Below, piece by piece: positions 16,549-60,456 of a stretch of DNA of 64,000 nucleotides. The stretch comes from Escherichia phage ECD7. Position 1 is the first letter of the stretch; every line of letters starts with the position of its first letter. The notes under the pieces are model-generated. The model made no database searches and was not told the DNA's origin. It saw only the letters and a program-made list of their open reading frames with translations. Both the position numbers and the translations under genes were made by a program. Location of the stretch: the sequence record NC_041936.1. The stretch is one strand, 5' to 3'.

Positions 16549-18025
16549 TTAAATGTCAAACAGGTCCGTAAGCGATGCCACCTTTTCATATTGCAGCTTT
16601 GCAGCCGTGGTAATGTTCTCCAGTGGTTTGACGAAAGTCTTATTAAACAACAAAGGCCAGTCTAACCACTTCAACACTTCTGATTCAATTTCTGGCGGAA
16701 TACGAGTACCAGACAACCAACCAAAACAGATTTCTCCAAACGGATTTCGATCTTTAAGCGGTACAATCATAACCTTCTCGCCTTCACGAATCGGATCTAG
16801 TCCGAATTTTCGAGCATTACGATTATAACACAATACACTCTTAACCGCATACGGACAACCCTTAATCGGATACCCGTTTGAATCGCTGTATTTCTGTAGG
16901 TTGTTTGCAGATGATACCGCAGCAACCTCAAGATAATCAAGTTTTCTAAACTCTTGCTCAAAAATACCGTAGTATTCCTGTAGCGATTCTTCCCCTTCCT
17001 GCAACATACGGCGAATACATTCTTTCAGTGATTTCTGACATGCTTTAGGGGTGGAGCTACGTTGCGTTTCCAAGCCCATGATTTTTAGCTTAGGTTCAGC
17101 AAAGCGCGTTCCTTCCATATCCCAAACATTAAGAGCATAACGCTTTTTACCAGTCCAGAATCCACCGATACCCGCAGATTTCAACGGAGGACCAGCAATT
17201 GCCTCACGGTCCATAAACATCAAGTGCTCATAGTTATTCATGTACTCGCATAACTCGCGATATCCCTTGTCGATAATAGGTTCCATTCGATGTTTACCGA
17301 AATTATCAAGGAAGTCAACAAGTTTTTCGGTATCGTCGAAACGGTCTTCCCCGCCAACCTTATCAACAACATTGTTAACCAGCACATAAACGGAGTCAGT
17401 ATCACAATAACGAACATATGCAAAATCAGTTGTTCCGCAAAGCTCGTTTAAGTATTCGTTAATCTTACGCTCAATCCACTGAATTGCAAGCTGACCAAAC
17501 AGTGTGATCGCACTAGCGTTACGGAGATCATAAAAACGGAATTTAGGATTCCCCAACGCACCATAAAGGGAGTTGATCAAAACTTTACGAGAAAGCTGGT
17601 TTGTATTGCACAAGATCGACTCGTCTTTACATTCTTCCAGCAATTTCTCTAAGGCATCTTTACTTAATTCAGAAAGCATCGATTTAAACGCTTCGTCAAA
17701 GTCGTGACGCACTTCAACGCTATAGCTAATGGTTCCCCCATAAACATGATTTTCATCGTGTAGAATCGCTTTACATAGTTCAGCATTGCGATCACATGCC
17801 AGCATCATATTTTTGTACTGCTTACGCTGATCAAATACCTTTTTAATCTCAATAGGTACGATACCATGAATATCTTTTCGATACATCCACCCGTTAGGCG
17901 AGCAAGAATACTCATCACTCGGACGTGGTGCAGTTTTATTGATATATTCGTGCATCGGTGCAGCATCAAAAGATCCAGCGATTGTTTCAGGCGAAATATT
18001 AACCTGACGGATGATTGATGGATAC
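16549..18025 (-). CDS. 43: DNA polymerase gp43, exon 2 (motif A YPS onward; palm/thumb)
   Basis: Frame open from 18025 (YPSIIRQVNISPET...); LINSLYGALGN, YCDTDS, KKRY motifs; stop at 16549-16551. Confidence 0.9.
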
Positions 18026-18165: not shown

Positions 18166-18990
18166 TTACCCTTTCGATAGTCGTTGAACAACTGCATCTT
18201 TAAGCTCATTTTGATCAAACGGTGTTCTCTTACAGTACCCGCTATAATTCTTGGCAAAAGGTTTCTTCTTACCAAAGATCTCTTTTCCTGAATTATGTGC
18301 TTCAACAAGAAAATTCACCATTTCATCAAATGTGAAACTTGTAAATTTAGCATAAGTTTCATTACGTTTTGACATTATTTTACTCATAACTTCCGGTCGT
18401 TTAGACGCTGAATTTTCGCGCTTCTCGCCAGCATTAAATGATACTAACTCACCGGAAACATATCTAGGATCATCACAACTAACTCTAAACCGATTTCCTT
18501 CCTTATCCTTAACGATAACAGTATTCTTTAGCTTTTCTGCCATAGAATCAAGACCTTTTCGTATAGTGTCCTCATCAGCCCCGAAATATTTCTTTCCGCT
18601 CATATCGGTTCTGGCTTTTCCGGTCTTGTTTTCGGATATTTTCAGTCTAACTTCCTCTCGCTTGGCTGGGTTATTGTCTCCAGCGAATGCATCTTTGGTT
18701 AACGCCTTCACTTTATCGTCATAAGATCCTCTAGAGATGAAAGCATATGCTCTCTTGCATTCACCGTTATTGAATATTAAGCACAATAACCGATGCGCCT
18801 CGACGTGGTCTTCAAACTTAAGCCTAACAAGATTCCATTTATCTAACCGATATTCAGGGAACATTGACTTCGGGCATATATGATGCACCTCGGAATATTC
18901 TTCACCCTGATACGGATTAGACACCAGTTTAATGTAGTCGTTTAATGCTTCCTCGTTATGTATTTCGTACTTTCTTAAAATGTCTTTCAT
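18166..18990 (-). CDS. intron-encoded HNH homing endonuclease
   Basis: HNH motif EVHHICPKSMFPEYRLDKWNLVRL...HVEAH; ATG at 18988-18990 preceded by GGAGG. Confidence 0.8.
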   Translation of the reverse strand: MKDILRKYEIHNEEALNDYIKLVSNPYQGEEYSEVHHICPKSMFPEYRLDKWNLVRLKFEDHVEAHRLLCLIFNNGECKRAYAFISRGSYDDKVKALTKDAFAGDNNPAKREEVRLKISENKTGKARTDMSGKKYFGADEDTIRKGLDSMAEKLKNTVIVKDKEGNRFRVSCDDPRYVSGELVSFNAGEKRENSASKRPEVMSKIMSKRNETYAKFTSFTFDEMVNFLVEAHNSGKEIFGKKKPFAKNYSGYCKRTPFDQNELKDAVVQRLSKG

Positions 18991-19035
18991 CTCGCGCCTC
19001 CAATGTATATCAATATTTATATACATTATAAGACA
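18991..19035 (-). promoter_or_regulatory. T4-type late promoter (TATAAATA) and RBS for the intron endonuclease
   Basis: Minus strand TATAAATA (plus 19024-19031) about 33 nt upstream of the HEG ATG. Confidence 0.5.
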
Positions 19036-19139
19036 CGTTAGCTCAAAATGCAACTGCTGCTGATTGTCTCCTTAGAGATTTCCCAGCAATTAAGCAGGTT
19101 ATTCGATCACTGTCACCAGTGAAAGCCCCATATCAGTTT

Positions 19140-20341
19140 AGGGAAGTAAGGTCAAAGCTCATCATCCAACGATAAGCATTAGGTACTGGCTCTTTTACGA
19201 ATGCGCCAGGATAAGTCTGCTTAGGCTGTATCTTGTTCTCTGGTACTACTTTACCCTCAGCTTTCAGAGATCCGAAGATAATAGCATCCCATACTTTCAT
19301 CGGGTTATAAACATGGTTAAATTTAATCTTTGCATAGAAACATAGACTATACACCAGATCGATAAATCCACGCTTTTTATCAATCGCCAGCACACGATCA
19401 ACGTCGCCGATGTTATAATCGATGTAAAGTTGATGATTGTCATCACGCAATTTCTTTAACGGACCATCATAATCAACCTTACCGATTCCTGTCTCATATT
19501 CAGCAACATAATCTAACGCATATGTTGGTTGAGTCGTAAAGCTAAATTTCTTGTACAGGTCAATATAATCAAGGCTTTCGATCCCCATGATCGTAAATGC
19601 TTCACGCTCGTTGCCAAAATCATCCTGTGAGATTCTGGATTTAATCTTACCGCACGGGCTTAGACGGTTAGCGGTTCTACTTCCGAACTTATTACTGATA
19701 CGTTTAATGATATATGGAATATCGAATGTTTCTGTGTTCCAGCCAGTGAAACCAACGGGTCGGTTTTCCTCAAAGAATCGGATGTATTCTAACAGCAATT
19801 CATCTTCTGTGTCATAGACGTTATAAACAACGCGCTCTACAATATCAGGTCGAAGAATAGACTTGCTTGCTTCCCAGATTTCACCGTTTTTTCCTTTCAA
19901 ATCAAATACAAAGAAACGATCATGTACGGAATCATAATGCGTAATTGCATCTATAGGATATTTCGCTTCTTCTGGTTTAGGAAATTCTGGGGCAGTGACC
20001 TCAATATCAACCCATGCTACACGGATTTTATTTCGGTCATATCGAATCTCTCCTTTATACGTATCGGACAGATAGGAGATGATAAAATCATCCATCCCTA
20101 GTGCCTCTTGCCCCATCTCCCCCATCTTTTTACGCCATTTGTTGGCCTCGTTCATAGATGGGAATTTTTTAGCAATGCAAGGCTTGCCGTAGATATCTTT
20201 ATAATTCGTAACCATACCAGGCGCGGCATGATGAAATAAAGTTGGCGTATATTCAACGTAACGCTCTTGTTCTTGTCCAGCATCATCAATATAACGCTCG
20301 TAGATCTTATCACCCACTCGCTCACATGACAGAAAATACAT
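19140..20341 (-). CDS. 43: DNA polymerase gp43, exon 1 (N-terminal and 3'-5' exonuclease domains to motif A)
   Basis: ATG 20339-20341 with AAGGAG SD; ERYIDDAGQ, FDIPYI, ends FDLTSL at splice site. Confidence 0.9.
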
Positions 20342-22365: not shown

Positions 22366-22393
22366 ATTAAAACGGGGAGTATTTATACTCCCC
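22366..22393 (-). promoter_or_regulatory. stem-loop with TATAAATA in the loop between genes 45 and 44
   Basis: GGGGAGTA-TAAA-TACTCCCC perfect inverted repeat; possible late promoter or attenuator. Confidence 0.35.
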
Positions 22394-22405
22394 ACAAACA
22401 TTATA

Positions 22406-23092
22406 TTAGTCGGTGTAGCTGGAGTCAAGGTCACACGCGATCATATAAGATACGGTTTCACTTGCCAGCCATACAGCCTTACGGCGAGTGAAGCTCAGTT
22501 TGTAATCGCCGAAGTCAGTAGCAACCAGTTTCATGTTATCTTTACGAATAAAGAAATGGAAGTCTGCGGTTCCGGTATATTCGCCCATATCAAGACAAAA
22601 CATCTCATTAGGATTATTTTTGTCAATCTCTTCCCAACCTTTGATCATCAGACGACCATCAATCGGAAGAAATTCAAGGCGATCCACTTTAAGCTGATTG
22701 CTCATTTTCATAAGCTGTTTCAGATCGTCGTTGCTCAGTTCGTAATCTACATCGCTTGCAGGTGGAGTAACTCGGCCTTTCGGTGATACGATAGCAGCAG
22801 CACTAGCACCAGGGTAATTAATTTTCAGACGATCATTAGACACACGAATGTTACCAGTGCGGTCATCAACCGTAATATCTGCTTCATCGCCTACCAGATT
22901 CAGAATACCCAGGAAAGAGTTAAGATCATAGATCCCGATTTCGTGTTCCAGTTCTTGATTCAGAGTCGCTTCACCATATACAACGTTTGTCATGTTTTTG
23001 GTGATTAGGACGTTTCCTTTTTTCAGGATGATACCTGGGTTAATAGCGGAAAAGTTTTTCAGGGTAGCAATGGTTTCTTTAGTCAGTTTCAT
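22406..23092 (-). CDS. 45: sliding clamp gp45
   Basis: ATG 23090-23092; MKLTKETIATLKNFSAINPGI resembles T4 gp45 N-terminus. Confidence 0.9.
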   Translation of the reverse strand: MKLTKETIATLKNFSAINPGIILKKGNVLITKNMTNVVYGEATLNQELEHEIGIYDLNSFLGILNLVGDEADITVDDRTGNIRVSNDRLKINYPGASAAAIVSPKGRVTPPASDVDYELSNDDLKQLMKMSNQLKVDRLEFLPIDGRLMIKGWEEIDKNNPNEMFCLDMGEYTGTADFHFFIRKDNMKLVATDFGDYKLSFTRRKAVWLASETVSYMIACDLDSSYTD

Positions 23093-28627: not shown

Positions 28628-28861
28628 TTATTTTACCTCTGGGATATAATCAATTATTAAAGAAAATTCATCTTCTGATACATTATAGCTATGTGAGATT
28701 GTACCCGTAAAGACCTCAAGATCCGGTGATTTGATATTGCACGGATCGATAATCACCGGAACGCCGCAATCTCTCAAAAATAATTTGGCGAAATACGGCA
28801 CAAGGTCAGTTTCAAACTCTGCTTCTTCCAGCAAACGGGAAATGTTAATTTTCAATCTCAT
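28628..28861 (-). CDS. hypothetical protein
   Basis: 77-aa ORF. Confidence 0.4.
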
Positions 28862-29378
28862 AAAATTGGTCCAGGCTAGGCAATTCCTCGGTCAATACAT
28901 CTTCAACCTTTGGCGCTTTCGGTTTATTGACCGATTCCTCGTAGTTGTTGATTTTATCGTAAATGTCCTGTATGAATGCCTCATCAGCAATCTGGCACAT
29001 ATCAGCGTCGCGTTCGTCATATACATGATGCACAAAATATTTGTATTTTGCGGCTGTCGCTGTTCTCTCTTTTTTAATGCGCTGTACAAAAGCATTAAAG
29101 CACGCTTGCGTGATGTAAGCATGAGGATTTTTATACTTTGTCTCGTCAAAATTAATCAAACCCTTGACCGCCGCTTCGATTCCGTCGTCGATCATTTCTT
29201 CGCGCCATGTTTGACTATAACCAGAAAAGTTAAAACGACGTGATAGATTTTTGGAGATTTGCATAATTGCTAGGCCGATTTGATCGCTCATTGGAACTTG
29301 CCGACCTTCTGCTGCAATTTGTTGTTTCCAACGGCAAATTTCTTCGTAAAGCTCTTTATTGTTTACATAATCAGACAC
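28845..29378 (-). CDS. 55: late-transcription sigma factor gp55
   Basis: [36 protein letters not shown] essentially identical to T4 gp55; GTG start with GAGGGT SD. Confidence 0.92.
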
Positions 29379-49758: not shown

Positions 49759-50047
49759 GTTCTCGATTCTCCATATTATGCAACATAACAAACTGTTGTG
49801 CGGCATATTCCCCCATAATAAAACACTGCTTAGAATCCATACATTTACTACGAGCATACATCTTCATAATATGGGCATGAAATTTCTGGCTGGTTTCAAT
49901 GGAAGGAGATATTTTGTTTACATATACTATCATTGCACCGTCGAAATAATCAGTAAAGTCACCAGTTGGATCATATTGATCAGCACTGACACTTCCGACC
50001 GCAGTCAAGCATATTGCCGCTGTTAGAGTTTTACGAATAAATGACAT
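49745..50047 (-). CDS. secreted protein with N-terminal signal peptide
   Basis: MSFIRKTLTAAICLTAVGSVSA signal-like N-terminus; late promoter and SD-sequestering hairpin upstream. Confidence 0.5.
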   Translation of the reverse strand: MSFIRKTLTAAICLTAVGSVSADQYDPTGDFTDYFDGAMIVYVNKISPSIETSQKFHAHIMKMYARSKCMDSKQCFIMGEYAAQQFVMLHNMENREHEIQ

Positions 50048-50051
50048 AAGT

Positions 50052-50095
50052 CATTCCCCCAGATTAAAAATATTCAGTTATATTTATAATCTGGG
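50052..50095 (-). promoter_or_regulatory. late promoter TATAAATA within a 10-bp stem hairpin that pairs with the SD
   Basis: Minus: CCCCAGATTATAAATA...TAATCTGGGGG then ATG; arrangement resembles the T4 soc/e regulatory logic. Confidence 0.55.
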
Positions 50096-50115
50096 GCTTT
50101 ATTTATGATTAACTC

Positions 50116-60237: not shown

Positions 60238-60456
60238 TTATTTATATCGCTTTCTCTCGCGACGTTTTTGATCTTCTTCCTTGATAGAGTTAAACGCATC
60301 AAAAAGACACATGACACTGATAATGAACATAACCGTATTTTCTACGATATCCCACGGCTTCGCATCAGTACAGATCCCCCAAACGGTAAGAAATGCAAAT
60401 AGTGCAGAAGAGATCACAAGCATGATACTTGCTAAGATATAAAAAGTCATTTTCAT
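60238..60456 (-). CDS. small hydrophobic membrane protein
   Basis: 72 aa. Confidence 0.4.
   Translation of the reverse strand: MKMTFYILASIMLVISSALFAFLTVWGICTDAKPWDIVENTVMFIISVMCLFDAFNSIKEEDQKRRERKRYK

Follow-up and report, generated by a model that had tools for sequence, protein, structure and literature searches.

In Escherichia phage ECD7, the gene of a putative homing endonuclease lies in a covariation-supported group I intron of gene 43, which encodes the DNA polymerase, and is very probably under two-level control like that of the T4 introns (probability of about 0.85). The two levels are a T4-type late promoter and an RNA hairpin at the ribosome-binding site (RBS). From the sequence we infer the late timing, the gp55 dependence, the start point and the effect on splicing. 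All positions refer to the window, the whole stretch of 64,000 nucleotides that was analysed.

The gene 43 intron and its endonuclease gene

By its sequence, the window is assigned to the RB49-like genus Krischvirus. The 1.3 kb round the promoter box showed 97–99.5% identity to ten RB49-like coliphages of this genus, including Cognac, MIZ4, MIZ5, JK32 and kvi. JSE matched half of this region only, and the matches of the intron-less phages RB49, Phi1 and GEC-3S were confined to its flanks. On the minus strand, the gene order was regA, gene 43 exon 1, an ORF of 274 aa and gene 43 exon 2. The following features were located:

19140..20341, minus strand: gene 43 (PolB DNA polymerase) exon 1, ending D-L-T-S-L, last base T19140
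18026..19139, minus strand: group I intron of 1114 nt with a P3/P7 pseudoknot, ending in G18026
19055-19047, minus strand: 5' strand of intron helix P6, AGTTGCATT, pairing with GATGCAGTT at 18198-18190
18166..18990, minus strand: endonuclease ORF, HNH-type, 274 aa plus stop, ATG at 18990-18988
18177..18198, minus strand: P6 3' strand, J6/7 and P7 5' strand (GATGCAGTT GTTCAAC GACTAT)
16549..18025, minus strand: gene 43 exon 2, beginning with G18025, then TAT CCA TCA (Y-P-S)

In tblastn, residues 1-401 and 402-892 of RB49 gp43 aligned to 20341-19139 and 18024-16552 with 99.8% and 100% identity, respectively. Comparison with intron-less RB49 placed the splice junction between T19140 and G18025. 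Removal of the intron restores the host ORF as D-L-T-S-L-Y-P-S, which is PolB motif A.

The Rfam model RF00028 matched the 3' half of the intron in the window with 32.8 bits (E 4e-6) and the shorter JSE copy with 42.9 bits, both below the gathering score of 50. The P6 loop with its long ORF, together with the additional elements P7.1/P7.2, plausibly lowers the score. Eight homologous introns were aligned after removal of the ORF, and a hand-derived structure, P1–P9.2 with the P3/P7 pseudoknot, was applied to the alignment. In the 12 helices, 92% of the cells were paired, compared with 76% in shuffles and 37–42% when the partners were slid. Both sides had changed in 35 pairs, and 0 of 500 shuffles reached such support. 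The final U of exon 1 pairs with the GGGG guide, and the T19140/G19122 pair was invariant in all eight sequences. The covariation thus identifies the insert in gene 43 as a group I intron, which is predicted to be self-splicing. For JSE, mention has been made of a putative intron in which the endonuclease gene is truncated (PMC2993671).

Both sides were altered among homologues in 5 of the 9 pairs of P6. The P7 5' strand pairs with ATAGTC at 18104-18099. The endonuclease ORF extends with its final codons into P6', J6/7 and the P7 5' strand (18198-18177). The promoter box, the hairpin and the ORF are all located within the P6 loop.

The final 15 nt of exon 1 (19140-19154, minus strand) carried five synonymous changes, reading gaccttacttccct in the window versus gacttaacaagtct in intron-less RB49. 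The last bases of exon 1 in the eight intron-bearing sequences of the alignment are TCCCT (CCCTT in maane) and pair with the GGGG guide. These changes are consistent with constraints on P1, co-conversion and/or immunity to the endonuclease.

The first-pass annotation had taken the ATG at 18990-18988 as the endonuclease start and regarded the ORF-track start at 19053 as too far upstream, and four lines of evidence bore this out. First, the same 825-nt CDS is annotated in the records of MIZ4, JK32, ELT4, JEP8 and Cognac. Second, a protein search returned 41 endonuclease homologues of 32–99% identity, with lengths of 238–293 aa, and 37 of the 41 were 273–289 aa long. Third, the PHROG profile alignment begins at residue 1 of the ATG-started protein. 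Fourth, the TTG at 19053 lies inside the covarying helix P6 and is therefore part of the ribozyme, not a start codon; it was rejected as a start. The annotation of the endonuclease start is corrected to ATG 18990 in place of TTG 19053.

The protein matched phrog_12434, 'HNH endonuclease', with an E of 6e-131. In 24 homologues, H36, H37, P40, H62 and H66 were invariant and N53 was at least 90% conserved, and the HH...N...H catalytic motif was present in the endonuclease. No Pfam or NCBIfam family matched the protein, and no Pfam family matched any of the 24 homologues. The PDB gave no sequence match, profile search included, and Foldseek of the whole chain against the PDB returned noise only. 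A scan of viral contigs for endonuclease relatives found none. From these sequence features we assign the enzyme, with moderate confidence, to the HNH-type homing endonucleases, and cleavage is predicted.

The probable late promoter and the hairpin at the ribosome-binding site

The region upstream of the ATG and the late-transcription genes of the window contain the following features:

19037-18993, minus strand: RNA hairpin of 18 bp, with 5' arm 19037-19019 (one bulge), loop 19018-19011 and 3' arm 19010-18993
19021-19014, minus strand: TATAAATA, T4-type late promoter box (-13 to -6), exact 8/8 match
19008, minus strand: predicted late start A19008, 6 nt past the box, giving an 18-nt leader, AUACAUUGGAGGCGCGAG
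19001-18997, minus strand: Shine-Dalgarno (SD) sequence GGAGG, with a 6-nt spacer, cgcgag, to the ATG
28848..29378, minus strand: gene 55, late sigma factor needed to read TATAAATA, 99.4% identity to RB49 gp55
22409..23092, minus strand: gene 45, sliding clamp and late-transcription activator, 99.6% identity to RB49 gp45

The box and the GGAGG RBS were both read on the minus strand at these positions, as the first-pass annotation had claimed. Its distance of about 33 nt between box and ATG was right as to the upstream placement and wrong as to the figure: counted from the first T of the box to the A of the ATG, the distance is 31 nt, which leaves a gap of 23 nt after the box. The T4 late promoter consists of a box at -13 to -6 and requires no -35 element (PMC1524935). 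By this T4 rule, transcription would start at 19008. The check for late machinery in the window covered gp55 and gp45; gp33 is outside the window.

Four copies of TATAAATA were found in the window, all on the minus strand, which is the coding strand here, compared with 5.4 expected on both strands, and the raw count thus shows no enrichment over chance. This count was set aside as a test of significance because the signal lies in where the boxes stand with respect to start codons. Of the four, three were located 23–39 nt before a start codon, namely those of the endonuclease gene, gene 44 and rI. In the late genes of RB49 (50 kb), eight boxes were found, all on the late-gene strand and none on the opposite strand. 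Seven of these eight were located 20–37 nt before genes 9, 18, 22, 23, 24, uvsW and 51, and the 23-nt gap of the endonuclease gene falls inside this range.

The other three boxes of the window showed features of their own. The gene 44 box, with a 39-nt gap to the gene 44 ATG (22340), forms the loop of a hairpin, GGGGAG-TATAAATA-CTCCCC (22374-22394, minus strand), which is located between genes 45 and 44 and is followed by GTTTT. At this site, a late promoter seems to be combined with a stem of the terminator-like kind. The RB49 record has TGTAAATA there, labelled 'hypothetical late promoter'. The rI box, TATAAATA at 50088-50081 (minus strand), has a 33-nt gap to the ATG at 50047 and lies within a hairpin of -27 kcal/mol (z -6.3; region 50040-50100): the box is part of the 5' arm, and the 3' arm covers the purine-rich SD of rI. 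The rI gene may remain untranslated on tk read-through RNA and be translated from a late transcript. The fourth TATAAATA (60239-60246, minus strand) overlaps the stop of the ORF at 60238-60456 (cga tat aaa taa), and no ORF of at least 50 aa starts within about 270 nt downstream of it. This box probably either arose by chance or serves a small gene that is not annotated.

The hairpin at 19037-18993, which had gone unnoticed in the first-pass annotation, pairs all five bases of the SD. Its minimum free energy (MFE) was -19.3 kcal/mol in an 86-nt context, with a z of -3.7 and 1 of 200 shuffles equally good; z ranged from -2.8 to -4.1 with the context. The hairpin was kept in both the MFE and the centroid structure of a 251-nt fold. 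TATAAATA spans the boundary between 5' arm and loop, with three bases at the end of the arm and five at the start of the loop, and the predicted +1 at 19008 falls inside the 3' arm. Late RNA from about 19008 would not contain the 5' arm, and the RBS would therefore be exposed: in RNA starting at 19008 or 19018, the SD was unpaired and the MFE was -2.1.

A T4-like delay of endonuclease expression by a late promoter had also been proposed for this site. The arrangement expected for such a delay is present in silico. The promoter alone is insufficient, because the ORF is already carried on the early gene 43 pre-mRNA, and the delay requires sequestration of the RBS by the hairpin. A perfect TTGACA-17-TATAAT promoter is located at 20402-20374 (minus strand), just 5' of gene 43, and is the likely source of early read-through RNA with a silent endonuclease ORF.

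In the proposed mechanism, early gene 43 transcripts would start at the 20402-20374 promoter and read through the intron. On this read-through RNA, the hairpin at 19037-18993 would pair the whole GGAGG and keep ribosomes off. Exclusion of ribosomes would prevent the unfolding of P6/P7, which the ORF overlaps with its 3' end, and splicing would proceed. After the onset of replication, gp55-RNA polymerase, activated by gp45 and gp33, would initiate at TATAAATA. The RNA would start near A19008 in the 3' arm and be without the 5' arm, the RBS would be free, and the enzyme would be made late.

Conservation of box and hairpin, and alternative readings

Among close relatives, the 76-nt region was identical in 7 of 12 records (11 close relatives). 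TATAGATA replaced TATAAATA in 3 of the 12 (JSE, ELT4 and JEP8; window position 19017). The endonuclease gene of JSE (L002) carries an out-of-frame deletion of 650 nt, and ELT4 (L020) and JEP8 (L021) have an intact endonuclease ORF despite TATAGATA. The occurrence of TATAGATA in three relatives means that the box is not strictly maintained. The variant may be an early step in the decay of the endonuclease, with part of the lineage in the decay phase of the homing cycle. ELT4 and JEP8, as natural TATAGATA variants, offer a ready-made test of the box. Conservation within the genus is uninformative on the promoter, because the 5' part of the intron is invariant among close relatives.

The diverged set consisted of nine contigs from T4-like phages, with endonucleases 41–65% identical to that of the window. 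The endonuclease gene was located inside the PolB gene in all nine contigs, the intron site D-(L/V)-T-S-L was readable in seven, and regA was upstream wherever the contig reached that far. Six of the nine (endonuclease identities of 65, 65, 57, 51, 53 and 49%) had an exact TATAAATA at 17–35 nt before the ATG. These six, all within 56 nt before the endonuclease ATG, were the sole copies of TATAAATA in 63.5 kb of homologous loci with both strands counted. The chance of a box in at least six of eight such zones was about 6e-11, given the zones' own A/T content. Two further homologues had boxes with one mismatch, TGTAAATA or TCTAAATA, and L019 was the one homologue of the nine with no recognisable box.

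An SD-pairing hairpin was present in all eight boxed loci (that of L016 was judged by eye), with the box abutting or overlapping the 5' arm, and in all eight the predicted late RNA was without the 5' arm. The arm sequences differed between phages and TATAAATA was unchanged. A box that stays constant while the pairing partners vary fits a DNA signal within a structurally conserved RNA element.

At 1400-1500, the L016 contig (P0032) has the box TCTAAATA, the SD AAGGAG and a stem that pairs the SD. No in-frame ATG, GTG or TTG followed the SD, and the called GTG start lies about 20 codons too far downstream. L016 may use a non-canonical start or may be decaying.

Of the alternative readings, a host-type early promoter within the intron survives best, and we still regard it as unlikely. 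The candidate site is as follows:

19025..19053, minus strand: sigma-70-like TTGCAT (19053-19048), 17 nt and TATAAT (19030-19025), 9/12 match

Such a promoter would start RNA near 19018 and free the RBS, and the endonuclease would be expressed early, or both early and late. The site combines a perfect -10 hexamer with ideal spacing, and its -35 includes the TTG. RNA from 19018 would begin past the 5' arm and have a free SD, and the nrdB intron ORF of T4 does have a second, non-late promoter (PMC2988022). However, the -35 hexamer had only 3 of 6 matches and the site was not reported by the promoter scan. The six early promoters annotated in the RB49 record all have TTGAC at -35. The TTGCAT sequence is explained by the ribozyme, because it belongs to a covarying strand of P6. 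In Cognac, the substitution A19027G, its sole change here, turns TATAAT into TATGAT at -10 and an A-U pair of the hairpin into G-U, which keeps the stem. In the diverged homologues no equivalent hexamer pair was found, whereas TATAAATA recurs.

The same homologues bear on whether TATAAATA is a chance string in an AT-rich hairpin of the P6 loop, with the enzyme, if made at all, coming from leaky translation of the pre-mRNA. The box count at chance level in the window, the A/T-rich region and the TATAGATA boxes of relatives with an intact ORF would all agree with this. It is nevertheless highly improbable, since the exact box recurred in six diverged homologues without a further copy in the homologous loci, stayed constant while its pairing partners changed and lies at a distance from the ATG like that of RB49 late genes. 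Leaky translation is further opposed by the complete pairing of the SD on read-through RNA.

The next relatives, with 34–39% identity, came from Ackermannviridae, where a homologous intron interrupts the DNA polymerase gene at the same codon (D-L-N-S-L). The carriers (L005-L009) were LIMEstone1/Kamild, maane, ZQ1 and Vibrio phage 1.244.A. These copies had a CTAAATA box followed by an SD-pairing hairpin, and this combination was present in three Ackermannviridae lineages with different arm sequences. The LIMEstone1 record (HE600015) has a 'putative late promoter' annotated 30 nt upstream of I-LimII. In a 32-kb stretch of LIMEstone1, CTAAATA occurred 7 times, compared with 2.2 expected. All seven were located 26–40 nt before starts on the same strand, five of them before virion-confirmed proteins. 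Judging from these positions, CTAAATA is apparently the late motif of Ackermannviridae. ViI-like phages have homologues of gp55, gp33 and gp45, and a late consensus of the ViI family had not been identified as of 2011, according to the CBA120 paper (PMC3184105). Searched for in the literature, CTAAATA was found described as a late motif for Aeh1 alone.

The evidence is evenly balanced on whether one intron-endonuclease pair has spread across Straboviridae and Ackermannviridae, in each with the family's own late box and RBS hairpin. If true, the promoter must be retuned to the resident gp55 at each family crossing, and a promoter mismatch would be a barrier to intron spread. The introns would then also serve as natural reporters of the late-promoter consensus in uncharacterised gp55-bearing phages.

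A role of the late promoter chiefly for the genes downstream of gene 43 (uvsX, 40 and 41), which would recall the host-gene promoters sometimes embedded in mobile endonuclease genes of T4 (PMC2988022) and agree with the finding of no terminator-like site on the minus strand from the box to the end of gene 43, is the least credible reading, because intron-less RB49, Phi1 and others do without a box at gene 43 and the box always accompanies the endonuclease ORF and the SD hairpin, even in a second phage family, where the gene order differs.

Comparison with known systems

The late-promoter and hairpin mechanism of T4 was established in 1988 and reviewed in 2010. The combination of a late promoter and an RBS hairpin has been reviewed for I-TevI, I-TevII, I-TevIII, segB and Aeh1 mobE; in these, early or middle read-through RNA has its RBS hidden, and transcripts from the late promoter expose it (PMC2988022). 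The rationale given is a disruption of the intron core and of splicing by ribosomes in the ORF (PMC2988022). The conservation of box and hairpin at 41–65% identity, and in a second family, supports selection for a ribosome-free ribozyme core.

The endonuclease gene of ECD7 is like I-TevI (T4 td), I-TevII (nrdD) and I-TevIII (nrdB) in that a phage group I intron, inserted in an early or middle gene, carries the ORF as a looped-out segment. As in these three, TATAAATA lies directly upstream and the late start, here a predicted one, falls inside the hairpin that buries the SD (PMC2988022). As in I-TevI/td, the ORF runs with its 3' end into the ribozyme core (PMC2988022). Unlike in the T4 introns, the host gene is gene 43, with the insertion in PolB motif A. 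The enzyme is of the HNH type with NUMOD3-like repeats, whereas I-TevI is a GIY-YIG enzyme, and unlike T4, the Krischvirus phage is without the MotA middle mode.

In T4 td, an I-TevI operator that resembles the homing site (15/20) overlaps the promoter. In a search for an I-TevI-like operator over 19050-18985, the best ungapped match to the intron-less site of RB49 was 13/20, which 148 of 300 shuffles reached. An autorepression operator of the I-TevI type was dropped, with the match at chance level.

Aeh1 mobE and T4 segB follow the same late-promoter and RBS-hairpin logic, and mobE is also of the HNH type (PMC2988022). Both are free-standing between host genes and not intronic, so splicing is not at stake there. 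The inferred late box of Aeh1 is CTAAATA, as before the Ackermannviridae endonuclease copies.

No paper on the regulation of the gene 43 intron endonuclease was found in the literature. The gene 43 intron of JSE is the same intron, with a dead ORF and the box TATAGATA. I-LimII of LIMEstone1, an endonuclease of 34–35% identity, belongs to a homologous intron inserted at the same codon and has the box CTAAATA. The sources for JSE and LIMEstone1 neither describe an RBS hairpin nor compare promoters. The two-level control proposed here predicts late intron homing in RB49-like phages. It would bring a fourth intron under the T4 rule, one that interrupts the essential gene of the DNA polymerase and encodes an unrelated enzyme. 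It is thus a further instance of a scheme known from T4, and the family-specific promoter dialect on a shared intron is its newest angle.
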